This document shows, one piece after another, positions 22,186-44,203 of a stretch of DNA of 64,000 bases (the first letter of the stretch is position 1; each line of letters starts with the position of its first letter). This stretch comes from a virus (lineage: Duplodnaviria > Caudoviricetes), in the IMG/VR virus record IMGVR_UViG_3300044652_000022, positions 11,154-75,153 of that record; one strand, given 5' to 3'. The notes beneath the pieces are model-generated. The model ran no database searches, had not been told where the DNA came from, and saw only the letters and a program-made list of their open reading frames with translations. Position numbers and translations under genes: made by a program.

Positions 22186-22506
22186 ATGACCATCGCTGCT
22201 CTCCTCGCCGCGGCTCGCAAAATCTGGGGGGCGGAGCGGATGACCTTGCCCGAGATCATCGTTTGTCTGAACGTGATCCTGGGCGATATCGCGCGGCTGC
22301 AACGAGACCGGGATCGGGAGCGGTCGCTTCCTGGAGTTTGGGACCGCGCGCTGAAAAAGGAACTCGGGAATCTGATCTTATCCACGATCCGCTGGTGCGA
22401 CGATTTAGACTTCAACCCCAACGAGTGCATTATCGAAGCGCAAAAGGCTCAGGCGGTGATGGCGGATCGGCTGCGGATCGAGCGGACAGGGAGGATTCAA
22501 GGATGA
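22186..22506 (+). CDS. MazG-like NTP pyrophosphohydrolase fold protein (degenerate)
   Basis: helical EII...GDIAR...KELGNLILSTIRWCDDLDF pattern. Confidence 0.55.
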   Translation: MTIAALLAAARKIWGAERMTLPEIIVCLNVILGDIARLQRDRDRERSLPGVWDRALKKELGNLILSTIRWCDDLDFNPNECIIEAQKAQAVMADRLRIERTGRIQG

Positions 22507-22793
22507 GTCTTTTCACTTCTCTATTGCTGGCGGACGCTTTCGAGAAAGGCGGTCCCGGTTCCGGCCAACTCCCAGGATCCGCATCCGCCGCTGCGGCTCG
22601 GGCTTCGGAACGGGCTATTGACAAGTCCTCGCATAAGCGAGCAGCAAAGCTGCACACCCGCGCCGCCACCGCTCATTTGCAGGCGGCGGTGCATGTTGGC
22701 GGAACACTGTCGGAAAAGGGACGCGAGCACCTTGCTGCGTACGATACCCACCACAATGCGGCGTTAGAGCATTGGCTGCGGGCGGGCAAATAA
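22503..22793 (+). CDS. His/Ala-rich leader-family protein C1
   Basis: MSLFTSLLLADAFEKGGPGSG leader. Confidence 0.75.
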   Translation: MSLFTSLLLADAFEKGGPGSGQLPGSASAAAARASERAIDKSSHKRAAKLHTRAATAHLQAAVHVGGTLSEKGREHLAAYDTHHNAALEHWLRAGK

Positions 22794-23297
22794 ATGATCT
22801 CCGTGACCATTCAGTTTAATTCCGCCGAGGAAATGCTCGAGGCGCTCCTCTCGCTGGCGGAGAACGCAGGAAAGTTTCAGGAACAGCTGGACCGCATCGA
22901 AGGCACCCTTGACAAGATCCTAGAAAACGAAAGGAATATTATGGCCAATGAACAGCAGATGCAGGATGCGTTGAACAAAATCGACCAGGCGACGACGCGC
23001 GCGGGTCAGAACCTCCAGACCCTGTCCACTACCACGCAGAAAATCAGCGACGAGGTGGACCAATTCATTTCGAAACTCCAAGACGCGAACGTTCCGCAGA
23101 ACCTCATCGACCAGGCTACCGGGTTGGCGGATCGTCTCCAGACCGTGTCCGACGGTTTGGACCAGCACGCCACCTTTCTTAGCGCAATCGCTTCGAAAGG
23201 AGCCAGCAATCCAGTCCCTGTCCCAGTCCCTCCCGCTCCCACCGACGGCGGAAGCCTCAGTCCCACTCCCGACACGGGTTCCGCTCCGACGCCGTAG
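22794..23297 (+). CDS. coiled-coil protein with Pro-rich tail (internal start MANEQQ possible)
   Basis: heptads; AAGGA before internal ATG. Confidence 0.7.
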   Translation: MISVTIQFNSAEEMLEALLSLAENAGKFQEQLDRIEGTLDKILENERNIMANEQQMQDALNKIDQATTRAGQNLQTLSTTTQKISDEVDQFISKLQDANVPQNLIDQATGLADRLQTVSDGLDQHATFLSAIASKGASNPVPVPVPPAPTDGGSLSPTPDTGSAPTP

Positions 23298-23314
23298 CGC
23301 GGCGGCGGCTAAAG

Positions 23315-23447
23315 CTCTTCTAGCGTTCCTCCGCAGGCTCCTCGGGCGTTAGAAGGGGAAAGGGCTGCGCGTAGCGGATGCGAGGCCGACAATGGTGCGC
23401 CGGTCTCGACCACTCAACGTCATGAGGTCGTCTGTTACCGCAGCCCT
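23315..23447 (+). ncRNA. candidate three-way-junction RNA
   Basis: 17-bp closing helix plus two branch helices and an upstream hairpin in a gene-free gap. Confidence 0.5.
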
Positions 23448-23463
23448 GACCTAGATTCCGCCA

Positions 23464-23727
23464 ATGTCCTCGCCGGCTCCGCATCCCAGGGTCAAGATTA
23501 CCTTTCATTCCGCTGGCGCCTCGACTGGCGGATATTCGTTTCCTGCGGCGCCCGAATCTGCGCATTTCGATCTTCCCGAGGATCTGACGTTCGAAGGCTT
23601 CTGTTCTAAGATCATGTCGGAAGGATTCCTGTTGTCAGGCGACGGCATCCCGAACCGGTACCGCCACCGTCCGCATATCAAGCGTTACGTTCCGCCGTAC
23701 GCGGTCATCCGCATCGAGGAAGCATGA
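23464..23727 (+). CDS. hypothetical protein
   Basis: 87 aa; no clear RBS. Confidence 0.45.
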   Translation: MSSPAPHPRVKITFHSAGASTGGYSFPAAPESAHFDLPEDLTFEGFCSKIMSEGFLLSGDGIPNRYRHRPHIKRYVPPYAVIRIEEA

Positions 23728-23786
23728 CCGCTTATTATGCCCCCCAAGGTCTTGTGCTGACCCGTCCGCAAGCGGCGAGCGAGGCC

Positions 23787-23805
23787 AAAGGGGGCCACCC
23801 CTTTT
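23787..23805. terminator. short hairpin terminator
   Basis: AAAGGGG-GCCA-CCCCTTTT. Confidence 0.55.
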
Positions 23806-23911
23806 CATGACGCACCCAAGCTGGATCGTTCCGGCCTCGCAGCCGCAGGGACGCATGGTGATTCGTTTTTATCGGACGCCCACCGGGTTCAAACCCATCC
23901 TCGTCCACTCC

Positions 23912-23987
23912 TGGGGCATAGCTCAAGCGGCAGAGCGCCGGACCTTGATTCCGGAGGTTGCAGGTTCGAAGCCTGCTGCCCCAGCCA
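23912..23987 (+). tRNA. tRNA-Gln (UUG)
   Basis: 76-nt cloverleaf, U1-A72 acceptor, GCTC/GAGC D-stem, CCGGA/TCCGG anticodon stem with TTG, TTCGA T-loop, encoded CCA. Confidence 0.93.
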
Positions 23988-24014
23988 GAAAAAAATCCTT
24001 CAGGTAACCCTCCC

Positions 24015-25568
24015 GTGCCCAAGTCCGTCGCCCCTCCGCCTCCCAAAAAGCAAAAGTACATCCCGCGGAAACAGTTCCTCGCGCAAAAACACGCCGGCGT
24101 GATCCCTGGCAGCGTCCAGTTCATCGACTACAAGCCGCGCGGCGCCATCAAGCAAATTTTCAGCCTAAGGATCCCGGAATGGGTGCTGTCGGGACCAGCC
24201 GGGACTGGGAAGTCTCGCGGCTGTCTAGAAAAAGCGCACTGGATGCTGGAGAAGTATCCAAACGCGCGCGGGCTGATGGTGCGCAAGACGCGGAACAGCA
24301 TGAACCAGTCCTGCATCGTCACGTTCGAAAACAAAGTCCTCCCCACCCCAACCTACGTTCCCTTCCACACGACCGATCAGGAATACCGCTATCCCAACGG
24401 CTCGATATTCGCCGTAGCCGGGATCGACGACCCGAAGAAAATCTATTCGTCAGAGTGGGACTTCTGTTACGTCAACCAGGCGGAGGAACTGACCGAGGAC
24501 GATTGGGAGAACATCAAATCCCGGCTCCGCAACTGGAAGATGCCGTATCAATCGTTGTTTGCGGACTGCAACCCGGACGCGCCTTCGCACTGGATTCGGA
24601 CGCGCGCCGCCACCGGGATGCTGCAACTGCTCGAAAGCCGCCACGAGGATAACCCGGAACTGTGGGACGAGGTAAACAAGTGCTGGACGGAGCGAGGGCG
24701 GCAGTACGTTTTAGAGATCCTCGATAAACTTACCGGCGTCCGCTACAAGCGTTTGCGGCTCGGGCAGTGGGCGGCGGCGGAAGGGACGGTGTACGAGGAC
24801 GTCTGGGACCGCGCCGTCCATATTATTGATCGCTTTTATCCCAACGTTCCTTTGGACCGCGATCAAGTCCCACCCGACTGGCCGCGGTACTGGGTGATTG
24901 ATTTTGGCTATACGAATCCGTTCGTCTGGCAGGCTTGGGCGGAGGACCCCGACGGGCGCCTGATCCGCTACAAGGAAATCTACCACACAAAACGATTGGT
25001 CGAGGACCACGCCCGCCAGATCCTCGAGGTCACGAAATACGATCCGAAACCGAAACTGATCGTATGCGACCACGACGCCGAAGACCGAGCGACGTTAGAA
25101 AAGTACCTCGGGATGCCAACCAAGGCGGCGTGGAAGTCTGTGAGCCCTGGCATTCAAGCGGTGGCGGCGAGACTGCGAGTCCAGGACGACGGCAAACCGC
25201 GTTTGATGTACATGCGCGATTCGGTCATCGAACTCGACCAGGAACTCCTCCGCCAGCACCTCCCGACCTCGACCGAGGATGAATACGACGTTTACGCCTG
25301 GGATATCGCGACGGCAGGCAAACCGCGCAAGCGAGGAATCGGCGAGGAGCCAATCAAGAAATACGACCACGGGATGGACGATACGCGGTACATCGTCACG
25401 TACATCGACAAGACCTGGGAGATCAAGCCGCACCTGTTCAAGATGATTTCCGTGACCAAGTCAGGATCCGACACGCCAGACAATCTGCACTCCGGAAGCG
25501 GCTGGCGGATGGGAAACACGAACGCTCCAAGCAAGTTTGGGGGTGGGAGCGGGAGGTTTCGTGAATAA
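24015..25568 (+). CDS. terL: terminase large subunit (PBSX-like)
   Basis: Walker A SGPAGTGKS, NQAEE Walker B, DFGYTNP nuclease motif, DHGMDDTRY; exact start uncertain. Confidence 0.93.
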   Translation: MPKSVAPPPPKKQKYIPRKQFLAQKHAGVIPGSVQFIDYKPRGAIKQIFSLRIPEWVLSGPAGTGKSRGCLEKAHWMLEKYPNARGLMVRKTRNSMNQSCIVTFENKVLPTPTYVPFHTTDQEYRYPNGSIFAVAGIDDPKKIYSSEWDFCYVNQAEELTEDDWENIKSRLRNWKMPYQSLFADCNPDAPSHWIRTRAATGMLQLLESRHEDNPELWDEVNKCWTERGRQYVLEILDKLTGVRYKRLRLGQWAAAEGTVYEDVWDRAVHIIDRFYPNVPLDRDQVPPDWPRYWVIDFGYTNPFVWQAWAEDPDGRLIRYKEIYHTKRLVEDHARQILEVTKYDPKPKLIVCDHDAEDRATLEKYLGMPTKAAWKSVSPGIQAVAARLRVQDDGKPRLMYMRDSVIELDQELLRQHLPTSTEDEYDVYAWDIATAGKPRKRGIGEEPIKKYDHGMDDTRYIVTYIDKTWEIKPHLFKMISVTKSGSDTPDNLHSGSGWRMGNTNAPSKFGGGSGRFRE

Positions 25569-25591
25569 TCTCTGTTTCCGCCGCGAAAATC

Positions 25592-25629
25592 CACCCGCTG
25601 CTCCGCGTTTGCTCTGGTTCTGCTCGATT
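25592..25629 (-). repeat. dispersed motif B copy 3 (inverted)
   Basis: reverse complement matches 49482-49519 at 34 of 38 nt. Confidence 0.85.
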
Positions 25630-25768
25630 CCGACGCCGGAACTGGTGGAATACAGCCGGAACGCCGCTTCCGATCGCTTATAGACCATGCTCTTCCCAGG
25701 GAAATATCGCCACCCGAGGCACTTCGCTATTACCCAGGAGCTAGTGAAAGCAGATTATAAGGTGTGGA

Positions 25769-26038
25769 ATGACCCCAGCCGAACAGCTACCCAATCCGCC
25801 AGCCGAGACCGAGGATCTGGGAACGATCCCAGGAACGCAAGCGCCGCTGAGGCGAGTTCCGCCTCCGCCGCGCCCAGCGTGGTACGAACTCGACAGGTAC
25901 CAGCGCTACCGGGACTTGTTCCTGGCTATTGGTTTTTTGATCCTGCTGTCCGGGATAGCGATGATTTCGAAACCTGCTGCGATCATTTGCGCTGGCGTCG
26001 GGCTGATGATCCTGGCTTATCTAATGTCGGTGAAATAG
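25769..26038 (+). CDS. two-TM membrane protein (holin candidate)
   Basis: two hydrophobic helices, upstream of endolysin. Confidence 0.5.
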   Translation: MTPAEQLPNPPAETEDLGTIPGTQAPLRRVPPPPRPAWYELDRYQRYRDLFLAIGFLILLSGIAMISKPAAIICAGVGLMILAYLMSVK

Positions 26039-26049
26039 AAGAGGAAAAA

Positions 26050-26601
26050 ATGTCCACTGCATCGAAGAGTATTCTATTGGCGCTGCAATACGCCCCGTCC
26101 GTGTCCAACGCCGTGCGGCAGTTGCAGCAAACGCATTCCGATCTTCCAGGTCCCAACCGCAAGGCGGTCATCATGGACAGCATTACGGCGGCGTGTCAGA
26201 TTGGAGAAACGGTGCCTGAAGAACACGTGGCGCTGATCTCTTGCCTGATCGAAACGGCGGTCGGGCTAGTGAAGCGCTGGCAGGCGGAGGGTGCCTTGAA
26301 TAAAGCGGATTCGGGTCCGAAGGCCGACAACCTATCTGGGACTACGATTGCTCAGGCGCGCAACGTTGGCGGAGCCGGAACTGGGCCTCGTCCTGTTACG
26401 GGATTGGGCACCGTGACTACCTCTCCGCCTTTCCCGTCCACGTCCACCACGACTGTCACGCCGCCGCCGCAAGCGCCGCCGGCCCCATCATATCCCACTG
26501 CCGCGGATGCAGCGGAAGGCGGTAGAACGCGCAGCGACGGCGGAACGATTCCGGGTCCGTCATTGACGACTGCTCCCGACCGTCCAGCCGGGAATCCGTG
26601 A
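26050..26601 (+). CDS. hypothetical protein with Pro/Thr-rich tail
   Basis: GAGGA RBS, 183 aa. Confidence 0.65.
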   Translation: MSTASKSILLALQYAPSVSNAVRQLQQTHSDLPGPNRKAVIMDSITAACQIGETVPEEHVALISCLIETAVGLVKRWQAEGALNKADSGPKADNLSGTTIAQARNVGGAGTGPRPVTGLGTVTTSPPFPSTSTTTVTPPPQAPPAPSYPTAADAAEGGRTRSDGGTIPGPSLTTAPDRPAGNP

Positions 26602-26635
26602 AACGCCGAATCAGGCTGGCGAGGTCGCGAAGGCG

Positions 26636-27064
26636 ATGGCGTCGAATGAAGAAATGGTGAGCGAGCACTTCTCTATCCGAGAACTCGCTTGCCATCATTG
26701 CGGGCGGTCAGGGGTCCGGGACGAACTCGTCCGCGCCCTGGAAGCATTCAGGGCCGAGGTGTCGAAGGAACGCGGAGCCGATACGGCTGTGATTGTGGAC
26801 GACGCTTACCGGTGTCCGATTCACAACCGCGCCGTGGGTGGCGTCCAGAACTCCCAGCACCTCCTCGGGTTGGCAGCGGACGTGAAGGTGTCGGGCATGA
26901 CCGCCCGCGAGCTTTACAAAATCGCCCTCCGCGTTCCCGAGATCAAAGGCTTGGGCGTGGACGACCACCACAACTATTTGCATATCGACGTGCGAGCGAC
27001 CCACGCCGTGGTTTCGTGGTGCTACGACCTCGCCGGGAAGCAAACGAAATTCTATGAGGCTTGA
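26636..27064 (+). CDS. peptidase M15A endolysin
   Basis: F..RELAC, YRC..HN..VGG..SQH..GLAAD, LHIDVR Zn motifs. Confidence 0.9.
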   Translation: MASNEEMVSEHFSIRELACHHCGRSGVRDELVRALEAFRAEVSKERGADTAVIVDDAYRCPIHNRAVGGVQNSQHLLGLAADVKVSGMTARELYKIALRVPEIKGLGVDDHHNYLHIDVRATHAVVSWCYDLAGKQTKFYEA

Positions 27065-27112
27065 ATCTCTGGGGTGTTGTCTGCGTACTCTCCCGTTCCG
27101 CTTCTCCCAGAG

Positions 27113-27176
27113 CTGCGGCGGAGGGCCAGGTCATGACTCCGCCTGGGGTGCTCGCATCCTCTGCCGCAGTCTTTTT
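27113..27176 (+). terminator. long stem-loop with U-tract before portal
   Basis: CTGCGGCGGAGG / CCTCTGCCGCAG stem, inner CCAGG/CCTGG, TCTTTTT. Confidence 0.6.
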
Positions 27177-27190
27177 CAGGATCGTGTGAC

Positions 27191-28684
27191 ATGGCGCTAA
27201 TCGACCGCGTGTCCAAACTCATCCCCTCGGCGTCGTCGCGGATGGGCATTTTAGGCAATAGCGCCGCCGTCGCTCTTCCAGGTCGCGGTGGCGTGCCCGA
27301 CATGCCGCGTCCGCGTCCCTTCGACGAACTGGGCGTGTCCGGCTTGAATCGGATGCGCGGCATCGGGACGGTCAATGAAGAATGGCTGATTGACCTGTCC
27401 GGGAATCGGTGGAAGCAAATCTACCGCGAGATGCGCGACAACGATCCCGTTATCGGTGCGATGTTCTTCGCTCTGGAGACCATCCTCCGCAAAGCGGAAT
27501 GGTCCGTCGAACCAGCCAAGGGACCCGACGGCGACAACATCGCCCAGTTCATCCGCGACTGCATGGACGACATGTCGCATACGTGGGAGGACTTTATTGC
27601 CGAGTGCGTCTCCCAGTTCACCTTCGGATTCGCGCTATTCGAGACCGTATACAAGCGCCGCAAGGGGATGAACGGAAAGCACGCCTCCCGGTTTGGCGAC
27701 GGGCTGATTGGCTGGCGCAAATTCGCGCCTCGCGCCCAGGAGTCTATCGTGTACTGGGTTTGGGACGAGGAAGGCGGGTTGCAGGGAGCGCAGCAGCTAG
27801 CTCCGCCCGACTACAAGCTCTGCACTCTCCCAATTGAAAAACTGATGCTCTTCCGCACCACCTCGCTGAAGAACAACCCGGAGGGAAGGTCCATTCTGCG
27901 GAACTGCTATCGCCCGTGGTTCTTCAAGCGCCGCATCGAAGAGGTGGAAGGGATCGGGATCGAGCGAGACCTCTGCGGGTTGCCGGTCCTCTATGCGACC
28001 GAAGAGGCCCTTGGGCAAATGGGTGGTGAGAACGCCGCGCGGACTCTTGTGCGGAACATTCGCGTGGACGACCAAGCTGGCGTCGTTCTCCCTCAGGCCT
28101 TCGACGACAAAGGCAATCCGCTGGTCAAGCTGGAACTTTTAAAAGCTGCCGGAGCCAAACAGACGGACCCGGACAAGACCATCACGCGGTACAATCAGGA
28201 TATTTTGAACACGATGCTCGCCGGGTTCATTCAATTCGGCCAGACACCCACCGGGTCGCGGTCGTTGCACGTTTCCGCCACCGAAATCTTCTCGCTCGCG
28301 ATTACGACGTTCATGGACGGCGTGGCTGCGGTGATGAACCGCTACGCCATCCCGCGCCTGATGGCGCTGAATCAGATGGATCTGGAAAAAGCGCCGCGCC
28401 TGATCCCAGGTGAAATCGGCGTCCGCGATTTAGAAGAGCTTGCGGACTTCGTGCAAAAGCTGTCCCAGGCTGGGTTGACGTTCTGGGATCCGCCAACCGT
28501 CGATTACCTGCGCAAGATGGCGCGGTTGCCCAAGGCGCCGCCCGAGGAAGCCATGCCGCCCGCGGCGCAGAATCCCGAAGGGGAACCGCAGCCTGGACAA
28601 TTGCCTCCAGGACAAGCGCCCGCCGGGTCTGAAGGGCCTCAGGATCAGGCGGAGGCGCAGCGGCAGCTGGAGGGCGTGGCGTGA
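27191..28684 (+). CDS. portal protein (DUF935 / Mu gp29-like)
   Basis: 497 aa; Y.EM..ND..IGA, NPEGRSILR..Y.PW.FK, GIERDL motifs; position after terL. Confidence 0.88.
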   Translation: MALIDRVSKLIPSASSRMGILGNSAAVALPGRGGVPDMPRPRPFDELGVSGLNRMRGIGTVNEEWLIDLSGNRWKQIYREMRDNDPVIGAMFFALETILRKAEWSVEPAKGPDGDNIAQFIRDCMDDMSHTWEDFIAECVSQFTFGFALFETVYKRRKGMNGKHASRFGDGLIGWRKFAPRAQESIVYWVWDEEGGLQGAQQLAPPDYKLCTLPIEKLMLFRTTSLKNNPEGRSILRNCYRPWFFKRRIEEVEGIGIERDLCGLPVLYATEEALGQMGGENAARTLVRNIRVDDQAGVVLPQAFDDKGNPLVKLELLKAAGAKQTDPDKTITRYNQDILNTMLAGFIQFGQTPTGSRSLHVSATEIFSLAITTFMDGVAAVMNRYAIPRLMALNQMDLEKAPRLIPGEIGVRDLEELADFVQKLSQAGLTFWDPPTVDYLRKMARLPKAPPEEAMPPAAQNPEGEPQPGQLPPGQAPAGSEGPQDQAEAQRQLEGVA

Positions 28685-28699
28685 GAGTTTTTTACAACC

Positions 28700-29344
28700 A
28701 TGAGGACGCTGCATTTTCTAGCGGTCTCTCTGGTGCTCCTTTCTCTTGTAGACGCCTTTGGGCAACCTCAGGAAGCGGAACGGTATCAGGACGACCGCAA
28801 ACGCTCCCCGCTCATTGGTCAACCACCCCGGGTTGCGAGCCCAGAGATCGTCCAGCAAATGAAGCAGAGATTAGAAAGGAGCGAATTTGGATCGGGGCTG
28901 ACACCAGCCGAACTGAACGAGATCAAAAAATTACGGGAAGCCGATATTGCGCTACTCAATCGCATTATCGAAACCGACCGCAAGTACAAGGAACTGGTCG
29001 AGTACATCAACGGACTGAACGACACGTTAGACGCCAGGCTCCTGACCCAGGCCATAGACGATATCAAGCAACTGAAGCAGGAACAGCAGGACAGGTTGGA
29101 GACCGAGAAAACCGAGCACGAGCGCAACATGCGCATGGTCGGGTCGATCAAAACCGGAACGATCATGCTGGTAATTGGCATGGTCGTGCATTGGGTCAAA
29201 TGGATGATCTTCGACCCGAAGCGGAGGAAGGCTCTGCTCAACGCCATGCAGCGGCAAACGGAAGAGGTCAAGCACAAGGACTGCACGGAGTTCGAGCGGG
29301 AGTATCGACCTCACTACTACCCCAAAGAGGGGTCGGACGACTGA
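28700..29344 (+). CDS. secreted/membrane coiled-coil protein
   Basis: Sec-type signal, coiled coil, C-proximal TM. Confidence 0.65.
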   Translation: MRTLHFLAVSLVLLSLVDAFGQPQEAERYQDDRKRSPLIGQPPRVASPEIVQQMKQRLERSEFGSGLTPAELNEIKKLREADIALLNRIIETDRKYKELVEYINGLNDTLDARLLTQAIDDIKQLKQEQQDRLETEKTEHERNMRMVGSIKTGTIMLVIGMVVHWVKWMIFDPKRRKALLNAMQRQTEEVKHKDCTEFEREYRPHYYPKEGSDD

Positions 29345-29357
29345 ATCGGCTTTAAAA

Positions 29358-29717
29358 ATGCGCGAATGGTTCCATCGTTTTGCGGAGAAGGCGGAAAGGT
29401 ACGCTGGGTCCCCATCTGCCTTCTTCATTGCCACGGCGATGGTCTTGGTCTGGCTGGCCACGGGACCAGCCATGCGCTTCACCGACACGTGGCAGTTTCT
29501 GATCGACACGCCCACCAACATCATTACCTTCCTGATGGTCTTTGTTCTGCAAACCTCGCAGAACCGGAACCAGAAGGCGCTTCATTTGAAGCTAGACGAA
29601 CTGATCCGCGTTTCGACAGCGCGGAATGCCTTTGTCGGTCTGGAGAAGTTCAGTGAGGACCAGATTGCCGAACTCCAGCGCGAGTTTGATAGGATAGCGA
29701 AGGGAGACGAAAGATGA
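29358..29717 (+). CDS. low-affinity iron permease family protein (Fet4-like domain)
   Basis: F.RFA......GSP.AF...W...GP...F.DTWQ..I.T.T.IITFLMVF..Q..QNR..ALHLKLDELIR. Confidence 0.85.
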   Translation: MREWFHRFAEKAERYAGSPSAFFIATAMVLVWLATGPAMRFTDTWQFLIDTPTNIITFLMVFVLQTSQNRNQKALHLKLDELIRVSTARNAFVGLEKFSEDQIAELQREFDRIAKGDER

Positions 29718-30079
29718 GTTTGTTCACTTCCCTGCTCTTGGCGGATGCGGTGGAGAAAGGCGGACCTGGATCGGGACGCCATCCGGGAGGCGGATCGGAT
29801 CCTCGTTCGCTGGCGATCCATGCCCGCCGTATGACAGAGGCAGCGCAGGACGCGACGAAACGATCCCGTTCAGAAAATTCTGGGTCGGCGCATCGCGAAG
29901 CAGCGGCGGCTCATGAGCGGGCAGAGTACGCCCACCGCGCCGCATCCGACGCCTATCGAGCGGAAGGCAATCGCGAGCGTTCCGCCAACGGACATGCAGA
30001 CCAGGCGCAGCGACACCAGCGCGCCGCAGCGTTTCACAGCAGGATGGCTACCGCCGACACCGTTCGGCGCTGGGAATAG
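29714..30079 (+). CDS. His/Ala-rich leader-family protein C2
   Basis: MSLFTSLLLADAVEKGGPGSGRHPG. Confidence 0.75.
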   Translation: MSLFTSLLLADAVEKGGPGSGRHPGGGSDPRSLAIHARRMTEAAQDATKRSRSENSGSAHREAAAAHERAEYAHRAASDAYRAEGNRERSANGHADQAQRHQRAAAFHSRMATADTVRRWE

Positions 30080-30090
30080 GAGAACAGAAG

Positions 30091-30732
30091 ATGAGTTTGC
30101 TAACGTCGTTGCTGTTGACGGACTCGATTGAAAAAGGCGGACCCGGATCGGGACGCCGCCCTGGCGGTGGGCAAGCTCCTCCGTCCTCGTTATTCGAACA
30201 CGAACGCGCGGCGCGGCAGGCTTCGACGCGCGCCAACTTCACCAACAAGCCCGAACACCACGCCTACGCTGCGAAAATGCACCGCGAGGCTGCGTCGGCG
30301 TTTGGCGCCAAGGGTGACCGAGAAAAGCAACAGAGCCACGAGCGCCTGGCTGCGTTTCACGAACGCAAAGCCGCGAGCGTGGGCAAGGGTGGTCCCGGAT
30401 CCGGCCGACATGCGGAAGGCGGAAGCCAACGCTTCACAATGGCCGGCGGTCGTCATTCAGGAACAGGAATGACGCACCAGGAGTTCGGGCACTTTGCGGC
30501 GAAGGTCGGCATGGCGCTGAACGAAAACCGCGCGAAGGAGAACTCGTTGCGGGCAGCAGGCAACCACGAAGCCGCCAACCGCATTTACGATGAGAACAAG
30601 GGCCGGGTCAAAGGGATCCTGGATGAACACGGCGTAACGCCCCAAGCCTTCGATCACCACATGGGCGTTTACTCCAAAGCATCCGGGTCTCGTCCGCCCA
30701 ACGTGAAGCTGTCCCGCATGTTCATGTCCTAA
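30091..30732 (+). CDS. His/Ala-rich leader-family protein C3 (two GGPGSG units)
   Basis: MSLLTSLLLTDSIEKGGPGSGRRPG and internal SVGKGGPGSGRH. Confidence 0.75.
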   Translation: MSLLTSLLLTDSIEKGGPGSGRRPGGGQAPPSSLFEHERAARQASTRANFTNKPEHHAYAAKMHREAASAFGAKGDREKQQSHERLAAFHERKAASVGKGGPGSGRHAEGGSQRFTMAGGRHSGTGMTHQEFGHFAAKVGMALNENRAKENSLRAAGNHEAANRIYDENKGRVKGILDEHGVTPQAFDHHMGVYSKASGSRPPNVKLSRMFMS

Positions 30733-30809
30733 AAAATGATCGTCCTTCTTCTAGCGGCGAGTCTGTTGCTGCTAGCCCTACTGCTGTCGAATCGCGTCGG
30801 CAAATAAAA

Positions 30810-31139
30810 ATGATTCCGCTCGTTACGCTGTTCTGGCTGCTGGTTGGACATGCGGTTGCCGACTACCCGCTGCAAGGGGACTTCCTTGCCCGAGCCAAGA
30901 ATCACCGCCAGCCGTTGCCTGGTGTGCCGTGGCAAATCTGCCTCGTCGCCCATGCGCTGATTCACGCGGGTGCGGTGATGGCGATTACGCATAACCTGAT
31001 CCTCGCTTTATCCGAACTGTCCTGCCACATCGTTATCGACTTCTGCAAGTCGGAAGGTTGGTACGGGTTCGCCGCCGACCAAGCCTTGCACGTGGTCTGC
31101 AAAATCCTGTGGGTGGCGTTGTTGTTCCTCTTTCGTTAG
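30810..31139 (+). CDS. DUF3307-like membrane protein
   Basis: GHAVADYPLQ, AHALIH, H..ID..K, DQALH. Confidence 0.8.
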   Translation: MIPLVTLFWLLVGHAVADYPLQGDFLARAKNHRQPLPGVPWQICLVAHALIHAGAVMAITHNLILALSELSCHIVIDFCKSEGWYGFAADQALHVVCKILWVALLFLFR

Positions 31140-32108
31140 ATGCCCGTTACCTTCGTCAGGAAGTCGGTGTCCAACCCGATCAACGATGCTGCGGCGAACA
31201 TGGAGCCCAAGCTGAGAAAGGCTTTCTTAGACGCCGTAGCCGCGATGAAAAAGAAAGTCAGCCTCGACAAGCTGGCGAAGGCGGTGGAGCGAGGCAATGT
31301 AAATGAAGCCTTGTCCATTCTGGCGTTAGACAAAGACTTCGCCGACGCCCTGCGCGGCAAAGGACTCCAGGCCCACCTCGATTCGTTCCGCGACGCCATC
31401 AATCAAACGGTCGCGGCTGGAGCCAAGGCGGCTGTGAAAATGCTGCCAACCAGAATCAGCACCGACCTGTCCTTCAACCTCATGTCTCCCGACGCCGTGG
31501 CCTTCGTAGACTCGTATTCGTTTGGACTCATTCACCAGGTCACGCAGGACACCATCGAAGCCATCCGAGATGTCCTGCATCGCGGATTCAGCGAGGGCGG
31601 ACATCCGCTGGAGATGGCGCGCGAGATTCGCGACTTCATTGGGTTGACGACCAACCAGGAACGGGCGGTGGCCAACTACAAACGCGCCTTGTCCGATCCG
31701 TCGAAAATGCGGACGGCTCTGGATCGGGCTCTGCGCGATGGACGCCACGACGCCACCGTCCTCCGCGCCGTCCGCAACAACGCGCCGCTAGACCAGGCGA
31801 TGGTAGACAAAATGGTGGCTCGATACAAGGAACGTTACGTCCAGTACCGAGCCCAAATGATCGCTCGCACCGAATCCATCCGAGCCAGCAATGTCGGTCA
31901 AAAAGAAGTCTGGCGGCAAGCCCAGCGCCAGGGCTTGCTAGATGGAGCGGTGCGGGTATGGATTTCGTCGGGCGACGACCGCGAGTGCGACATTTGCGGA
32001 GACCTCGACGGCGAAACGGCAGGCATGGATGAGGAATTTGCTCCCGGTATCCTGCATCCGCCAACTCATCCGTCCTGCCGCTGTACAACGGCCTTGCAAT
32101 TCAGCTAA
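31140..32108 (+). CDS. head morphogenesis protein (MuF / SPP1 gp7-like)
   Basis: RAQMIARTES, W.S..DDR.C..C..LDG, HP.CRC. Confidence 0.88.
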   Translation: MPVTFVRKSVSNPINDAAANMEPKLRKAFLDAVAAMKKKVSLDKLAKAVERGNVNEALSILALDKDFADALRGKGLQAHLDSFRDAINQTVAAGAKAAVKMLPTRISTDLSFNLMSPDAVAFVDSYSFGLIHQVTQDTIEAIRDVLHRGFSEGGHPLEMAREIRDFIGLTTNQERAVANYKRALSDPSKMRTALDRALRDGRHDATVLRAVRNNAPLDQAMVDKMVARYKERYVQYRAQMIARTESIRASNVGQKEVWRQAQRQGLLDGAVRVWISSGDDRECDICGDLDGETAGMDEEFAPGILHPPTHPSCRCTTALQFS

Positions 32109-33325: not shown

Positions 33326-33525
33326 GGATTTGGCACGCCATCCGCCAGGTGTTCTGCCTCCACCGTCGGTTAGAGTTCGTGCGGAACATTTACGGCGACG
33401 AGATCAACTACAGCGGCGGCAATCGCTCGCTTTGGACATGTTTGAACTGCCACGCGCTGATCGGTAAAAAGAACCTGTACTTCGGAGATAGCGACAGTGA
33501 CGACTATCCCTCCCCCAGTGTTTGA
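33322..33525 (+). CDS. hypothetical protein (FC.H...CxxC)
   Basis: 67 aa, GGAG RBS. Confidence 0.55.
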   Translation: MRIWHAIRQVFCLHRRLEFVRNIYGDEINYSGGNRSLWTCLNCHALIGKKNLYFGDSDSDDYPSPSV

Positions 33526-36500
33526 AAAGATCCCGGACCCGAAGGCGCAGTCGCTCTTAAAGCAGTTTGTGGCGCGTCATTTGAACAGCGGAGCTTCGGA
33601 GCTGGTCGCCTACGTGAAGGCGTATCGAGCACTCGAGGAAGCCGGGTACGCGCGCGGCGACGACGGGACCTGGGTCCTGAAGGACTCGCCCACCATCTCC
33701 GACGTGCATGTTCCTGGCATCTTCCGCTTCCGTCTGCCGCGTCGTCGCCGCAAGCCCAAAAAAGACAAGCCAGCAATTCTGAAGCGCATCAGCGGCAACT
33801 CGGATATCGGGTTGAACGCCAAAGGCTCTGAGGACGCCATGCGCCTTGGGGAGCGGTTAGCGGCGCGTGGGGGGCTGGATGTGCTTTACGCAAGTCCAGT
33901 GGCGCGCGCCGCCCAGACCGCTGAAGCCTTGACCGAAGCCGATCCGTCCTTGACGTACCAGCTGAACAGCGCCCTGGCGCCCTGGCACCTGGGAAAGTAC
34001 GAAGGGCGGATGCCCGAAGAGGTTGGGACGAAAATCGACCGCCTGATCCAGAACCCGGACGACCGTCCTCCAGGCAACGGGCAGGATGCGGTGCCAGGTG
34101 AATCTTTCAACGATTTCAAAAAACGGATTATTACCTTCGTGCATGACGCCGGGATCGAATGGTCCAAGCATCCCGATATGCGCCTCGGGATCGTGATGCA
34201 CTCGCGCCCGCTCGATCTGATAATGGACTGGATCGCGGCTGGTGGTCCTCCTCCAGACTCGTCTTTCCGTCTGCGTCATACGCAGGAACACAACGACAAT
34301 TTGCAGCATGGATCGGTCTGGGTCTGGCGCCTCAACGATATCGAGACGCAGCAGGTGGACCTGAACCTCAACGATCCGCTGCCTGGCGGCGTGTACCTGA
34401 TCCTGCATTGTCTGACGGACGACGACCCGGACGACGGGATCGAACTCGACGCTACCGAAAAACGCTACGTCCCTCCTATCGAAGCCATCCGCGATGCCCA
34501 GGCTTCGTTCGAGGCTGGGTTCACGGTTCCTGAAATCACGGAAAAGCTGGCTTCGGGTGAAGGACTGACGCTCGATGAGGTCGAGCGGATATACGAGTTC
34601 TTCGGGACCGCCTCCAACGATATCGAAAAGCGCGCCTGGGGCGGACCCTTCGCCGCCAAGTGGGTGACGCGCGTTATCCGCAAGGCGTACACGGTCGAGG
34701 AGGACTTTGAAAAGGCAGATGGGCAGTGGGTAACTGTTCATGGTGTGCATGTATTCATCGACAAAAATGGTGTTATCCAAAAAGGTCCTCGCACGCTGAT
34801 TGGGCAACACCATACCGCTGTTACCCACAAGGACGTTGACGCTGTTTTCGAGGACAAAACGCCGCCTTCAATTCCCCCTAAAGGTTCTCCTGTAGAGGCT
34901 TACGCAGAGAACCTTCCGCATTTTGCGTCTTTCTACCTAAAGGATCAGGAGGCTGTTAAAACACTTCGGGATGCCTACTTCGCGCAGGAGCATGGTATTG
35001 CACCGCCCACAGAGGCAGAAAGACAGTGGACAGAGCACAACCAAAAGTTTGACCTGAACGATCCTGCCGTAAAAGCCCAGCAGGAGTTCGTGCAGGCGTG
35101 GATGCGGCATTCCTACCCTGATGGAAAGGTCAAGCTGTACAGAGCCCAATTGGGAGAGCCTCCTAGCAATCAGGTTTCTTACGCCCACGACCGAACGTCC
35201 GCCGTCGAGTTCAAGGAAACAGCGCTACAGGGACAGGGCAAGATCGTTTCGCACACGATCAAGGTCTCCGACATTGTGAATGCGTCGCCCTTTATCGGCT
35301 ACCTGGGGCGAGCCGATGAGCGTGAAGTCGTCGTAAACCGTTCGGTAAAGAAAAACGACGCGGTAGAAAAACAAGGCGGCGGGATCATGGTCGCGTTTAC
35401 CGTGTCCCCAGCGCTTGCGGACTTGCTGCGTGTAGACGACGGCGAGGACTCGGACGACATGCACATTACGCTGGCGTACCTGGGCCAGGTAGATGAAGTG
35501 GATCCCGAGCGCCTCGCCTTTCTCGAGGACGCGCTGGAAGGCTTCGGGTTGACGCATGGGCCAATGACCGGCGACATTTCGGGACCTGCTCGATTCGCTG
35601 CAACGAAGCACAGCGACGACAAGGACGTGGCGATAGCGCTGTTCAATTCCCCAACCATCCAGGAGTTCCGGAACGAACTCGTCCAGACGATTGAAGCGCT
35701 GGGACTGGAGGTAAAAAAGAACTTCGGGTACACGCCGCATATCACGCTGGCGTACATCAGCCCGGACGAGGACATGCCCGTCCAGCGCATCGACCCGGTC
35801 AAGGTGACGTTCGATCAAATCACGTTGTACGTTGGCGGCGAGCGAACGGACTTCGATCTGGTGGGATACGCAGAGCCAGTCACCAAGGCTACCGCCGTGG
35901 ACGAAGGCACCTGGGTGACGATCAATGGCCAGCATGTTTTGATCGGTGCGAACGGAGAGATCCTGCGCGGGAATCCCAAGGTACTTGGACAGCCCAAGCA
36001 AGGTGACCTGCCGCTCCAGCCGGCGATGAAGTTGACGCCGGTAAATGAAAAAGCCTTCAACGGGAAGCAAATCGAGGTCCAGCACAAGCTCTCTAAACTC
36101 GAAACCGGCAAGACAGCAGAGGAAGCCGTCCTCGCGCATTTCCACCAGCAAGGGCTGACGGACGCGCGTCCGCTGAACGAAAAGCACACGAACTTCCCTA
36201 TCGACCTCGTCCAGGACCATCAAGCCATCGAGGTCAAAGGCGGGCTGGTGTCGAATAGCAAAGCCGCGCAGCAGTGGCGTGCGACTATCGGACAGCCAGG
36301 CAAGACGGAAACGGCGTGGCTGAAGCAAGCCGGGAAGGAAGAAAAAGCGGCGTGGAATGATCGCAAGTCCCAGGAGATCCTGAAGCGCAAGGCGGACGCT
36401 GTGAAGGAACTCTCCAAGGAGCACGGAGTCAAATTCAAGGGGTACACAATGACCTCGATTATCAACCCCGACACCAAGACCATCGACCTGTATAAATTCG

Positions 36501-36577
36501 AGGGCTTCCACCTCCGCATCCCGTGGAACTCACCGTCCGCGAAAGCCGCGTACGTCGGAACATTCCGGTATCAATAA
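33497..36577 (+). CDS. polyvalent head-associated polyprotein (ChaB-like, His-phosphatase-like, ART-like, 2H phosphoesterase, PD-(D/E)xK nuclease)
   Basis: 1026 aa; recognisable catalytic motifs for each domain; two WVT..G.HV.I repeats; TAATG-coupled to protease. Confidence 0.85.
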   Translation: MTTIPPPVFEKIPDPKAQSLLKQFVARHLNSGASELVAYVKAYRALEEAGYARGDDGTWVLKDSPTISDVHVPGIFRFRLPRRRRKPKKDKPAILKRISGNSDIGLNAKGSEDAMRLGERLAARGGLDVLYASPVARAAQTAEALTEADPSLTYQLNSALAPWHLGKYEGRMPEEVGTKIDRLIQNPDDRPPGNGQDAVPGESFNDFKKRIITFVHDAGIEWSKHPDMRLGIVMHSRPLDLIMDWIAAGGPPPDSSFRLRHTQEHNDNLQHGSVWVWRLNDIETQQVDLNLNDPLPGGVYLILHCLTDDDPDDGIELDATEKRYVPPIEAIRDAQASFEAGFTVPEITEKLASGEGLTLDEVERIYEFFGTASNDIEKRAWGGPFAAKWVTRVIRKAYTVEEDFEKADGQWVTVHGVHVFIDKNGVIQKGPRTLIGQHHTAVTHKDVDAVFEDKTPPSIPPKGSPVEAYAENLPHFASFYLKDQEAVKTLRDAYFAQEHGIAPPTEAERQWTEHNQKFDLNDPAVKAQQEFVQAWMRHSYPDGKVKLYRAQLGEPPSNQVSYAHDRTSAVEFKETALQGQGKIVSHTIKVSDIVNASPFIGYLGRADEREVVVNRSVKKNDAVEKQGGGIMVAFTVSPALADLLRVDDGEDSDDMHITLAYLGQVDEVDPERLAFLEDALEGFGLTHGPMTGDISGPARFAATKHSDDKDVAIALFNSPTIQEFRNELVQTIEALGLEVKKNFGYTPHITLAYISPDEDMPVQRIDPVKVTFDQITLYVGGERTDFDLVGYAEPVTKATAVDEGTWVTINGQHVLIGANGEILRGNPKVLGQPKQGDLPLQPAMKLTPVNEKAFNGKQIEVQHKLSKLETGKTAEEAVLAHFHQQGLTDARPLNEKHTNFPIDLVQDHQAIEVKGGLVSNSKAAQQWRATIGQPGKTETAWLKQAGKEEKAAWNDRKSQEILKRKADAVKELSKEHGVKFKGYTMTSIINPDTKTIDLYKFEGFHLRIPWNSPSAKAAYVGTFRYQ

Positions 36578-37281
36578 TGCCTGTCCCAAAAGAGGTTGAG
36601 CAGGAGTTCCAGGACGCCCTGGACGCCTACATTAAAGACTGGAAGGCGGACCTTCTCGCTCACGCCAAAGAGTATGAGGCGAAAAAGGAGAAGCGCGAAA
36701 AGCCCAAATGTCCGCATTGCGGATCGAGCGACTACGGGCTTCTCCCTGCCGACTTCGAAACGGCTCGCTGCCACAACTGCGGCAAGACATGGGACCACGG
36801 CATTGTTCCCGGCATCAACGATCCATACGAAAAACGCCAGGTCGAAGTTTCTGGGACGATCACGAAATTGGACAAGAGCCGCCACCTGGTGTTTGGATGG
36901 TTCTCGATTGTCAAGGTGGACGGACGTCCGGTCGTGGACAGCCAGCAGGATATCATCACGCCAGAAACCCTCGAGGACTCTGCCTACCAGTTTGTCTTGA
37001 ACGCGCGAGTGGCTGGCGAGATGCACAACAAGGACGGCGACAACACGGTGGTTGGCGTCGGGCGCCTCGTAGAGTCTGTGGTCTTTACGAAAGAAAAGCA
37101 AGCCGCCATCGTGTCTAGCCTAACCGACCAGCACATCTCTGCCGTGATGGATCTTGGGATGGAGGGCTGGTGGGGCGGCTTTCGCATCGAGGACGAAGCC
37201 ACTTGGGCGAAGGTAGTTACCGGAGAACTGCGCGCCTTCTCGATTGGCGGCAAGGGCAAGCGAGAAAAGATTTCGGAATAG
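36577..37281 (+). CDS. XkdF-like prohead serine protease with N-terminal Zn ribbon
   Basis: ITKLD..HLVFGW, D.Q.D, GEMH, GRLVES, GWW.GF, W..V..GEL..FSIGG; CPHC..CHNC. Confidence 0.88.
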   Translation: MPVPKEVEQEFQDALDAYIKDWKADLLAHAKEYEAKKEKREKPKCPHCGSSDYGLLPADFETARCHNCGKTWDHGIVPGINDPYEKRQVEVSGTITKLDKSRHLVFGWFSIVKVDGRPVVDSQQDIITPETLEDSAYQFVLNARVAGEMHNKDGDNTVVGVGRLVESVVFTKEKQAAIVSSLTDQHISAVMDLGMEGWWGGFRIEDEATWAKVVTGELRAFSIGGKGKREKISE

Positions 37282-38156: not shown

Positions 38157-38157
38157 C

Positions 38158-41031: not shown

Positions 41032-41399
41032 GCAAGCAGCAGAACATTGACGAGTTGCCCATCGGCTGCTATCGCCGTCTGAAGGTTACGGTCACGGACC
41101 CGGACAACAATAATGCTCCGCTCGACCTGACCAGCGTCCAGGAGATCCGCTGGGTGCTATCTGCCCTGCCGTCGTACGCGGTCAAGGTAAGCAAAACGCT
41201 GGAAGACGGGATCACGATCCTCGACCAGACCGTGACCGAAAACGTCGGACAGTTCCTGGTTGAAATTGCACCGACCGACACCGACGGCTTCAAGCCAGGT
41301 ATCTATTATCACGAGGCGCGCGTCGTGGATTATCTGGGACGCCCGGACGTGGTGGTCTGGGGAAAAGTCACCGTAAAAGCCAGCCCCTCGAATAGCTAA
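41028..41399 (+). CDS. BppU-like adaptor protein
   Basis: P.DLT...W...K...GI.I....G.F.V.I.P.DT...PG.YYHE..V pattern. Confidence 0.6.
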   Translation: MSKQQNIDELPIGCYRRLKVTVTDPDNNNAPLDLTSVQEIRWVLSALPSYAVKVSKTLEDGITILDQTVTENVGQFLVEIAPTDTDGFKPGIYYHEARVVDYLGRPDVVVWGKVTVKASPSNS

Positions 41400-41409: not shown

Positions 41410-42744
41410 ATGGCGCAGGAATTGAGAGAACTGGAACTCGAGGAGGTTAGCCTCGTGGACCGCCCGGCCTGTTCAGAAAAAGGCATCCCGCGCGCGAGGA
41501 TCGCGCTGACCAAGCGCCACGCGGAGGTGGTGAAGGCCGGGACCAAGGGCGTCAAATTTGTTATCGGATTTCCCAAGGAGGGCGGTGGAGGATCGGAAGT
41601 CCAGTCCGTAATCTTCGATCAAAACGACTGGACGGAGGATGAAGCGCGGCAGTGGTTGAAAGACCACGACTTCTCCTCAGGCAAGATGGACAAGACAGAA
41701 GGGTCCTTGCGGTTTCGTCAGGCGGACCCGGACAAGTTCGGGAGATTCAGGACCATCTCTCCTGGACAGGTGAAAAAGGAAGGAGACCACTCAATGACGT
41801 TGGAGCAAATCGAAAAGAAAGTCGAGGAGCAGGACAAGGTTCTCAAGGGCATCCAGGATGAGAACACGGTCCTGAAAACCGAAAACGAACTCGTTCTGAA
41901 GATGAACTCCGAGGAGCGCAGGCTATACGCGGTGATGCCCGCAGAGCGCCGCCTCGAGTACATCAACGGCGACGTAGCCAAGCGGAAAAAGCTCCTGGAG
42001 GATCAGGAGAAGGAGGAGAAGGAGAAGGCGCTGGTTGGCGGGCTGGACGACACCCGCAAGGCCGAGTATGCGGCAGCGGGTCCCGCGCGCCGCGCGCAGA
42101 TCCTCAAGGAAGCTGAGGAGGCGCTGGAAAAGAAAAAGACCGCGAAAGCCATGTGCCCCGATTGCGACGGCACGGGCGAGGTGGACGGCGAGGACTGCCC
42201 GACCTGCGATGGCACGGGCGAGGTGGACAGCAGCGAAATGGACAAGCACAAAAAGGAACCGAAAAAGACCGAGAAGCGCGACGACGACCCCCGCATCGTG
42301 GAACTCCAGAAGCGGGCGGCCGAAGCCGAGGACAACGTGGCCAAGGTGACCGCCAAACTCAGCGAGATCGAGAAGCGCGAGCGCCTCGAGAACTTCACCA
42401 AGCGCGCCGAGGAAGAGCTGCCCAATACGCCTGGCAGCCCGGCCGAAAAGGGCGAGATGCTGATGAAAATGGCGGACGCCTTCGGCGGTGTCCACAGCGC
42501 CGAATACAAGCGCTATTTCGGGACGCTGAAGGAGGCGGACAAGATTTACGCCTCGCAGTACACCGAGATCGGCAAGATGGGCGGACCGATCCCGGCGGCC
42601 AAGGTCTGGGACGCGAAGGTGGAGGAGATCGCCAAGCGCGACAAACTCGGCATCGGGAAGGCGACGGCGGTGGCGATGAAGGAAGCGCCCGAACTGTACG
42701 TGGAGTACGAACGCGCCCAGCGGCAACTCGTCCGGTCGATCTAA
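41410..42744 (+). CDS. scaffold protein (protease-tail N-terminus, DnaJ-type Zn repeats, coiled coil); internal start at 41794
   Basis: EVSLVDRPA; EVQSVIFD..W..A..WLK.HDF; CPDCDGTG/CPTCDGTG; AAGGAG before MTLEQ. Confidence 0.8.
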   Translation: MAQELRELELEEVSLVDRPACSEKGIPRARIALTKRHAEVVKAGTKGVKFVIGFPKEGGGGSEVQSVIFDQNDWTEDEARQWLKDHDFSSGKMDKTEGSLRFRQADPDKFGRFRTISPGQVKKEGDHSMTLEQIEKKVEEQDKVLKGIQDENTVLKTENELVLKMNSEERRLYAVMPAERRLEYINGDVAKRKKLLEDQEKEEKEKALVGGLDDTRKAEYAAAGPARRAQILKEAEEALEKKKTAKAMCPDCDGTGEVDGEDCPTCDGTGEVDSSEMDKHKKEPKKTEKRDDDPRIVELQKRAAEAEDNVAKVTAKLSEIEKRERLENFTKRAEEELPNTPGSPAEKGEMLMKMADAFGGVHSAEYKRYFGTLKEADKIYASQYTEIGKMGGPIPAAKVWDAKVEEIAKRDKLGIGKATAVAMKEAPELYVEYERAQRQLVRSI

Positions 42745-43201: not shown

Positions 43202-44203
43202 ATGCCTCAACCGACCTTAGCAGATATTCACGTAAACCGACCGCTGACGAACCTCACGGTCGGCTACGTCCAGGACGCCTCGGACTTCGCGGCCGGACAG
43301 CTTTTTCCCAGCGTGCCCGTCACGTCTCGATCGGATCTGTACTACGTGTACAACCGCGGCGACTTCTTCCGCAACAACATGCAGAAGCGGGCGCCGGGAA
43401 CTCCCGCGGCTGCTGGCGGCTACAAGCTGACCACGGCGCCGTATACGGCGGACGTTTGGGCGCTCAAGAAAATCATTGACGACCAGATCCGCGCCAACTA
43501 CGAGTCGCCGCTCGACGCTGAACGCGACGCCACGCAGTGGCTCACGCAGCAGGCCCTCATCAATCGCGACGTGAACTTCGTCGCCGCCTATTTTGGCACC
43601 GGCATCTGGGGCACGGACCTGACCGGGCATCCGACCACCGCCGACGCCACGCATTTCATCCAGTGGTCCAACACGGCCTCGACCCCCATCGACGACATCC
43701 TCAACGCCCAGCTTTACATGAAGCGGACGACTGGGATGTGGCCGAACGTGCTGGCTCTGGGCGCGCAGGTCTACATCAAACTCCTGACGCACCCGCAGAT
43801 CATCGACCGCTTGAAATACGGTCAAACGGGACCTGGTCCGGTGGTCGTCAGCACCTCCGACCTCCAGGCTCTGTTCAAAGTGGACAAGGTCGTGGTCATG
43901 TCGGCGATCCAGACGACTTCGCCGGAGAACATGGACCCGACGGGCGCTGGCGACACGTTCGACTTCATCGCCGGGAAACACGCCCTCCTCGCCTACGCCT
44001 CTCCGAATCCCGGGCTCATGCAGCCCTCCGCCGGGTACACGTTCAATTGGACCGGGCTGACGGGCGCCACGGCCGCTGGCATTCGGATCAAGAAATTCCG
44101 CTGGGAAGTCGACGCTGCCGACCACCTGGAAATCGAGCAGGCTTACGCCTTCGGTAAAGTGGCGGCGGAGTTGGGCTACTTCTTCAGCGGCGCCGTGGCG
44201 TAG
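43202..44203 (+). CDS. major capsid protein
   Basis: 333 aa; HV..PLTN..V.Y.Q...F.A..FP.VPV; highly biased codon usage; synteny. Confidence 0.9.
   Translation: MPQPTLADIHVNRPLTNLTVGYVQDASDFAAGQLFPSVPVTSRSDLYYVYNRGDFFRNNMQKRAPGTPAAAGGYKLTTAPYTADVWALKKIIDDQIRANYESPLDAERDATQWLTQQALINRDVNFVAAYFGTGIWGTDLTGHPTTADATHFIQWSNTASTPIDDILNAQLYMKRTTGMWPNVLALGAQVYIKLLTHPQIIDRLKYGQTGPGPVVVSTSDLQALFKVDKVVVMSAIQTTSPENMDPTGAGDTFDFIAGKHALLAYASPNPGLMQPSAGYTFNWTGLTGATAAGIRIKKFRWEVDAADHLEIEQAYAFGKVAAELGYFFSGAVA

Follow-up and report, generated by a model that had tools for sequence, protein, structure and literature searches.

Three genes with a common N-terminal leader

The DNA analysed here is a window of 64,000 nucleotides (nt) from a Caudoviricetes virus, namely bases 11154-75153 of the 75,153-bp single-contig record IMGVR_UViG_3300044652_000022, whose completeness is estimated at 79%. 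All coordinates are positions in this window unless another contig is named. Three genes on its + strand encode small proteins that start with M-S-L-[FL]-T-S-L-L-L-[AT]-D-[AS]-[FVI]-E-K, hereafter the leader, directly followed by G-G-P-G-S-G. The Lys at the end of the leader and the Gly-rich block behind it are together referred to as the joint. Gene 1 (22503..22793) encodes 96 amino acids (aa), with leader codons 1-15 at 22503-22547, GGPGSG at 22548-22565 and one His/Ala-rich helical unit behind it. Gene 2 (29714..30079, 121 aa) is built in the same way, with the leader at 29714-29758, GGPGSG at 29759-29776 and a His/Ala-rich helical unit. Gene 3 (30091..30732, 213 aa; leader 30091-30135, GGPGSG 30136-30153) encodes a two-unit mini-polyprotein: the three-helix unit A at about 30190-30384 is followed by a second joint, which reads V-G-K-GGPGSG-R-H (K at 30385-30387, GGPGSG at 30388-30405), and by the helical unit B at about 30475-30684. 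A Shine-Dalgarno-like GGAG/AGGAG lies 7-12 nt 5' of each of the three starts. The ATG of gene 1 overlaps the stop codon of the preceding gene (ATGA), and that of gene 2 overlaps the stop codon of an iron-permease-family gene at 29358-29717 in the same manner.

An earlier note on this stretch had reported a near-identical leader with GGPGSG at 22503, 29714 and 30091 as well as a second unit in the third gene, and both were confirmed. When the genome was searched with a hidden Markov model (HMM) of the leader derived from relatives, these three genes and no others matched (E = 1e-12 to 6e-10), which is far beyond chance. GGPGSG occurs in only 4 copies in the six frames of the 75-kb genome, all of them within genes 1-3. 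The leader codons differ mostly synonymously, with a proportion of synonymous differences (pS) of 0.52-0.91 against a proportion of nonsynonymous differences (pN) of 0.07-0.11; synonymous sites are saturated and the nonsynonymous distance (dN) is about 0.1. The leader is therefore under strong, long-standing purifying selection at the protein level. A recent duplication or a DNA repeat as origin of the leader is ruled out by the synonymous saturation.

The same note had the bodies diverge after the leader. This did not hold, since all three proteins share a homologous His/Ala-rich helical unit with spaced His and Ala residues. A cut behind K15 would leave predicted products of 8.3 kDa with an isoelectric point (pI) of 10.3 for gene 1, 11.5 kDa with a pI of 10.9 for gene 2 and 21.2 kDa for gene 3, the pI of all three ranging between 10.3 and 10.9. 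The leader itself is of hydrophobic/acidic composition. In the AlphaFold2 (AF2) model of gene 3 the folded units reach a predicted local distance difference test score (pLDDT) of about 90-95, with three helices at residues 34-98 (pLDDT about 95) and a second helical unit at residues 129-198, while the leader and both joints are disordered. Because these disordered segments alternate with folded helical units, the joints would be accessible sites. Searches with the three proteins, leader included, gave no family match in Pfam (E <= 0.01) or PHROGs, and a profile search against PDB sequences gave no match. Foldseek with the gene 3 model returned only generic designed helical bundles, and the ESM Atlas held no usable match.

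Genes 2 and 3 lie in an island at 28700-31139 between the genes for a Mu-like portal protein (27191..28684, +) and a MuF/SPP1 gp7-type head morphogenesis protein (31140..32108, +). The island holds three other genes, an unusual content for a head module: a gene for a protein with signal peptide, coiled coil and transmembrane segment (28700-29344), the gene of the low-affinity iron permease family that overlaps gene 2 (29358-29717; PF04120, E = 3e-43) and, after gene 3, a gene for a DUF3307 membrane protein (30810-31139).

The leader and the joint in related phages

We searched 1.84 billion representative proteins with a profile made from seven leader-bearing sequences and obtained 128 matches at E <= 1e-3. 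About 40 of these are small proteins (43-167 aa) opening with the leader, whose consensus is roughly M-x-L-T-T-L-L-L-A-D-A-V-[E/D/N]-K, then GGPGSG-P-H-P-G. The leader of these relatives is always found at the extreme N-terminus. At least 30 representative clusters (<50% identity) bear it, on about 10 small bodies that are unrelated by BLAST. Unit B of gene 3 is found alone behind its own leader in L007/P0022. The body of P0122 matches PARP weakly and, over part of its length, the ADP-ribosyltransferase (ART) region of the giant polyvalent protein P0121, so that a PARP/Tpt1-like (ADP-ribosyltransferase-like) cargo domain is possible; the AF2 model of P0122 (pLDDT 32) has no usable fold. Many small homologues bear GGPGSG and the His/Ala unit behind other, non-leader N-termini.

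Every leader gene with retrievable context belongs to the phage clade of the window. This clade includes G001 (IMGVR_UViG_3300050014_000073, an 83-kb relative), L032, L018/L007, L010, L023 and L001, with identities to the window of 65-71% for the capsid protein, 66-67% for the portal and 46-58% for the connector. Leader genes in the clade sit within head or late modules. In L018 and G001 a leader gene is flanked by those for capsid protein and connector, and in L032 the gene for P0122 lies between a polyvalent gene and an ADP-ribosyltransferase gene, the latter being followed by the XkdF protease gene. A strict leader pattern matched none of 185,579 reference prokaryote genomes and was found at just 3 loci among JGI metagenome contigs; the motif is also absent from Roseobacter phage RDJL Phi 1 and Brevundimonas phage Polewnik. 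The leader is almost certainly a selected, portable module. An HMM search for cargo in related phages had been suggested in the earlier note, and its outcome, about 10 unrelated bodies within one clade, agrees with the portable tag on diverse cargo proposed there. The diversity does not extend to the window, where the leader is found on one protein family plus one extra unit.

In four relatives the leader gene lies directly upstream of, and often overlaps, a glycosyltransferase/methyltransferase cluster (L010 3314-4215, L017 1528-2690, L001 4181-6873 and L030, from G001, 8300-9208). MptE-like genes are found near these clusters, and the body behind the leader varies between phages at the same position.

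The joint is far more widespread than the leader. A pattern scan of IMG/VR DNA and the profile search found it inside proteins of 200-2582 aa with 2-8 sites each and the consensus hydrophobic (P3)-x-[K/A/N](P1)-G-G-P-G-S-G-[R/P]-[H/K/R/Y]-P-[G/E]-G-[G/S], which is extended by a G-N-[FW]-G-H-x-G-R-P-G-x-x-G-G-S block in L008, L015 and P0102. The large proteins among them carry PARP/ART, PI3/4-kinase-like, InPase and prohead protease domains and correspond to the polyvalent proteins defined by Iyer et al. 2017. In phage polyvalent proteins, assemblin-like peptidases have been described at the C-terminus, where they probably process the polypeptide (Iyer et al. 2017, PMC5512222). The same paper describes neither joint nor leader, and a literature search with the motif strings returned unrelated papers only. 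Genes 1-3 do not belong to this class, which is defined by at least two effector or enzymatic domains in a head-module polypeptide: genes 1 and 2 encode one helical unit each and gene 3 two, with no recognisable enzymatic domains, and the joint alone is held in common.

The window itself encodes one polyvalent protein of 1026 aa (33497..36577, +) with His phosphatase, 2H phosphoesterase and other modules. The recurrence of D-A-V-E-K at a module border of this protein, to which the earlier note had drawn attention, is real: a joint-like D-A-V-E-K followed by Q-G-G-G is located at 35357-35383, with D-A-V-E-K (35357-35371) 4 residues before the 2H phosphoesterase domain, and the border keeps hydrophobic-x-K in the window and in the two orthologues from G001 and L032. 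As a copy of the leader, D-A-V-E-K by itself was rejected, the match to the leader HMM not being significant. The G001 orthologue has E-V-E-K-GGPGSG after its N-terminal domain and the XkdF protease at its end, which is exactly the arrangement described in PMC5512222.

A single open reading frame (ORF) of 1195 aa in G001 (L029 12239-15823) unites the polyvalent protein with an extra N-terminal carrier domain and with the XkdF protease; the window and L032 encode the polyvalent and XkdF parts in separate genes that are translationally coupled. The genome of the window lacks the N-terminal carrier domain seen in the effector proteins of G001 and L032. The polyvalent protein of the window contains two copies of a short element, W-V-T-[IV]-x-G-x-H-[VI]-x-I-x-x-x-G (about 34720-34770 and 35905-35990), which is also found in L032 (about 10730-10810), there after the N-terminal carrier domain of a 400-aa ADP-ribosyltransferase protein. 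It may represent a further conserved inter-module element of polyvalent proteins.

A putative cleavage site and head-loading tag

Of 194 sites of the joint, 173 have V, L, I, M or F at P3, and Gly occupies P1' and P2'. A hydrophobic-x-P1 layout is typical of assemblin-fold proteases, as in L/I-x-E for T4 gp21 and V/L/I-x-A for the herpesvirus protease. The T4 layout is backed in part by PMC9026906. P1 is uniform within the protein in 38 of the 42 multi-site proteins, compared to a shuffle mean of 15.2 (p <= 1e-4), and it tracks the protease family wherever this family could be typed: K/R occurs with XkdF/S78 (the window, G001, L032, L009, L013, P0017 and P0099), A with Mu-like_Pro (P0110 itself and the gene next to P0075) and N with ClpP (P0089). 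The joint lies 23 residues after the ClpP domain in P0089 and after the S78 domain in P0017 and P0099. In the scaffold homologues of L009/L011, V-E-K-GGPGSG begins about 50 residues into the protein, immediately behind the strand that would complete the protease (see below). With positions just behind protease domains or near the N-terminus of the scaffold, the joint thus stands where self-release of a protease would be expected. Given the hydrophobic P3, the uniform P1, its tracking of the protease and the placement at protease-scaffold borders, the joint is probably a protease site.

The Gly-rich element might instead be an uncleaved hinge or a docking motif for portal, shell or chaperone, or a flexible end for ejection, with the proteins remaining at full length and the leader acting as an oligomerisation or docking helix. 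This would account for conservation reaching well past the proposed scissile bond and for a motif that is kept alongside XkdF, S78, Mu-like and ClpP proteases. A passive hinge would leave unexplained why P3 is hydrophobic, why P1 is uniform within a lineage and changes with the protease family, and why the joint is placed exactly at protease-scaffold borders; we regard it as unlikely.

A candidate enzyme for the cut after K is the XkdF-type (Peptidase_S78_2) prohead protease encoded at 36577..37281 (+), whose gene is translationally coupled to the polyvalent gene (TAATG). It is the sole prohead-protease family found in the genome; an S78 prohead protease was not found in the 79% that the record is estimated to cover. 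Its specificity cannot be read from a known substrate, because the gpE-like major capsid protein has no obvious propeptide. The earlier note had referred to XkdF-like phages such as A511 for cleavage of capsid proteins after Lys; the literature on XkdF or A511 cleavage specificity yielded nothing usable and the precedent was left unconfirmed.

Taken together, the likeliest role of the leader is that of a removable tag for loading proteins into the capsid, because the joint at its end also parts the modules of head-associated polyproteins in many phages. According to the mechanism we propose, the products of genes 1-3 would be small, basic, helical internal head proteins that are made as precursors. 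The 15-residue leader would serve as a clade-specific capsid-targeting segment and dock the precursor onto the assembling prohead core, that is, onto scaffold, protease or shell interior. During maturation the XkdF-type protease would cut at the joint between K (P1) and GGPGSG, in gene 3 also parting unit A from unit B. Removal of the leader would leave basic proteins of 8, 11 and 21 kDa in the head, which would be ejected with the DNA. In many phages the same joint, with a P1 tuned to the protease, may be the place at which modules are cut out of head-associated polyvalent proteins and out of fusions between protease and scaffold. Such modules would ride on a large carrier, while small stand-alone cargo would need a tag.

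We estimate a probability of about 0.5 for the mechanism as a whole, in which genes 1-3 encode precursors of internal head proteins, the leader targets them and the joint is cut. That the leader is a targeting tag, judged by analogy, falls slightly short of an even chance. The restriction of the leader to one capsid/scaffold clade is as expected of a partner-specific docking peptide, and the scaffold-like protein at 41410..42744 (+; 444 aa, coiled coil and zinc knuckle) is a candidate docking partner. A wider and more doubtful extension would be a two-part grammar for head loading in many tailed phages: a universal, P1-matched joint would free effectors from polyvalent and ejection proteins, and the 13-15-residue leader of the clade would be a minimal transferable loading tag that turns any small gene product into packaged cargo.

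Cleavage at the joint could also occur with a leader that is no address at all. The leader would then be a pro-segment or an exosite recruiting the protease, keeping the protein inactive or marking it as substrate, and the proteins would enter the head by way of a basic body that binds DNA or scaffold. The joint and its P1-protease covariation speak for cleavage only, and the many small homologues with GGPGSG and His/Ala unit behind non-leader N-termini fit such a view. On the other hand, conservation is far stronger in the leader than in any body, and the leader is placed on unrelated bodies within one capsid/scaffold clade only, a distribution that a partner-specific docking element fits better than a generic pro-segment. 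We consider the pro-segment improbable, to nearly the same degree as the uncleaved hinge.

A role in the infected cell appears less probable still. The bodies would be His-rich, SmbP-like metal-binding helices acting with the iron-permease-family and DUF3307 proteins or with the glycosyltransferase clusters of the relatives, and the leader would mediate membrane association. The translational coupling of gene 2 to the PF04120 gene, the DUF3307 gene after gene 3 and the position of the leader gene directly upstream of glycosyl- and methyltransferase genes in L010, L017, L001 and G001 are in accordance with this. The relative P0014 moreover matches Pfam SMBP (PF16785) at 3e-4 with 21 bits, below the cut-off of 29, but the three proteins of the window have no SMBP match and the same leader precedes bodies without His-rich helices. 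The leader lacks a positive n-region, its about 9 hydrophobic residues being broken by T/S and followed by D; it therefore does not resemble a signal peptide and is too short for a transmembrane segment. Finally, the joint is an element of head polyproteins, and metal binding by the body would be compatible with packaging. A Sec/Tat signal peptide was rejected on direct reading, no predictor being run: there is no basic residue before the hydrophobic run of about 9 residues, which is followed by D-A-V-E-K.

A double-glycine leader of the bacteriocin type, which a C39 peptidase/ABC exporter would cleave behind G-G, would likewise be short, N-terminal and end in G-G, but the genome (79% complete) has no Peptidase_C39 (PF03412) match, the same element is internal in head polyproteins and the hydrophobic/acidic positions of the leader are presumably out of register with the double-glycine consensus, which leaves this explanation highly improbable.

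Several observations weigh against the leader and joint as a removable loading tag. The covariation between P1 and protease consists of about 10 cases from about 8 lineages. Conservation continues for 10-12 residues past the proposed cut (GGPGSG-[RP]-H-P-G-G-G), more than a protease site usually needs and a hint at a further binding role. The P' side stays the same alongside three different protease families. In a single-sequence AF2 model the leader is not a stable helix. The neighbours of genes 2 and 3 are membrane-protein genes rather than classical head genes, and the missing propeptide of the major capsid protein counts on the same side. Finally, when gene 3 and joint-bearing proteins were compared by tblastn with 50,697 named phages, gene 3 gave no match and none of the cultured phages had the motif.

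Among known systems we compared leader and joint with the internal proteins of T4. The T4 internal proteins IPI-III of about 8, 10 and 20 kDa are basic and present in roughly 360 copies each (PMC9026906). IPI, IPII, IPIII and Alt carry N-terminal capsid targeting sequences (CTS), which in internal proteins comprise 10-19 residues, bind the scaffolding core and are removed by gp21; a CTS by itself loads foreign proteins (PMC9026906). The resemblance lies in a short N-terminal segment on unrelated bodies, found across the clade in at least 30 clusters although the bodies in the window are themselves related, in a leader that ends at a motif with hydrophobic P3 and fixed P1, in genes located with head genes, in predicted basic products of about 8, 11 and 21 kDa, and in the possible ADP-ribosyltransferase-like cargo of P0122. 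The differences are considerable: in sequence the leader is not similar to the T4 CTS, the protease belongs to XkdF/S78_2 and not to gp21/S77, a putative P1 K with an invariant Gly-rich block replaces L/I-x-E, the capsid protein is lambda-gpE-like and the portal Mu-like, and the system of the window is known from sequence alone. With no sequence relation, another protease family and another capsid lineage, leader and joint would work like the T4 system without being a member of it. The "programmable protein-packaging system" of the earlier note is best taken as an extrapolation from T4 (PMC9026906).

With polyvalent proteins genes 1-3 share the joint, which parts the modules of such proteins; the 1026-aa neighbour is one of them and its G001 counterpart is fused to XkdF. 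Polyvalent proteins differ from genes 1-3 in being large carriers, the latter being small and stand-alone with an N-terminal leader. In the giant phages phiKZ and SPN3US, many head-internal ejection or inner-body proteins have N-terminal propeptides that the prohead protease cuts at one consensus motif (PMC10052503, PMC7411985). Removal of an N-terminal segment at one motif parallels leader and joint, but these are x-E sites of another protease family in giant myoviruses studied by mass spectrometry, compared to a 75-kb phage studied by sequence comparison. Compared by description, encapsulin cargo-loading peptides are likewise short, portable peptides that bring diverse cargo to the interior of an HK97-fold shell. 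They usually lie at the C-terminus, stay on the cargo and come without an associated protease, unlike the leader, which is N-terminal and putatively removed and whose genome encodes a protease.

If the proposed mechanism is true, the cut sites of polyvalent and ejection proteins, whose processing has so far only been postulated, would become predictable from sequence, and capsid-targeting leaders would exist beyond T4-like and giant phages in a lineage with lambda-gpE-like capsid, Mu-like portal and XkdF protease. It would also provide a very short tag and cut site for loading proteins into a different type of capsid, and candidates for injected effectors of metagenomic phages could be listed by searching for the leader or the joint.

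Other features of the head module

The head module lies on the + strand of the window. In addition to the genes described above it comprises a terminase small-subunit-like gene at 21639, the large terminase at about 23958-25568, an M15 peptidase, a cement/decoration-like protein and the lambda gpE-like major capsid protein (phrog_1005) at 43202..44203, which served as marker of head module and clade. The nearest named phages are distant, the capsid protein of Roseobacter phage RDJL Phi 1 being 46% identical.

The ORF of the XkdF protease (36577-37281) ends directly after an F-S-I-G-G motif. A strand E-V-S-L-V-D-x-P opens the scaffold gene (41410-41480), 4.1 kb downstream of the protease, and the same strand follows the protease domain in the fused protease-scaffold of Brevundimonas phage Polewnik (L038 11986-13767). 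Since the strand that stands after F-S-I-G-G in the fused homologue is found here at the scaffold N-terminus, this suggests that the scaffold completes the protease in trans. Protease and scaffold are likewise split in RDJL Phi 1, but there the genes are adjacent. The stretch between them in the window (37291-41399) holds four genes encoding proteins of 140 aa (phrog_644), 148 aa (phrog_25252), 957 aa (no family match) and 123 aa. The gap is much shorter in the relatives G001 and L032, and the block therefore looks like an insertion into the head operon.

The longest large-terminase ORF begins (TTG at 23958) inside a tRNA-Gln gene (anticodon TTG) at 23912-23987, so that the real start of the terminase must be located further downstream.

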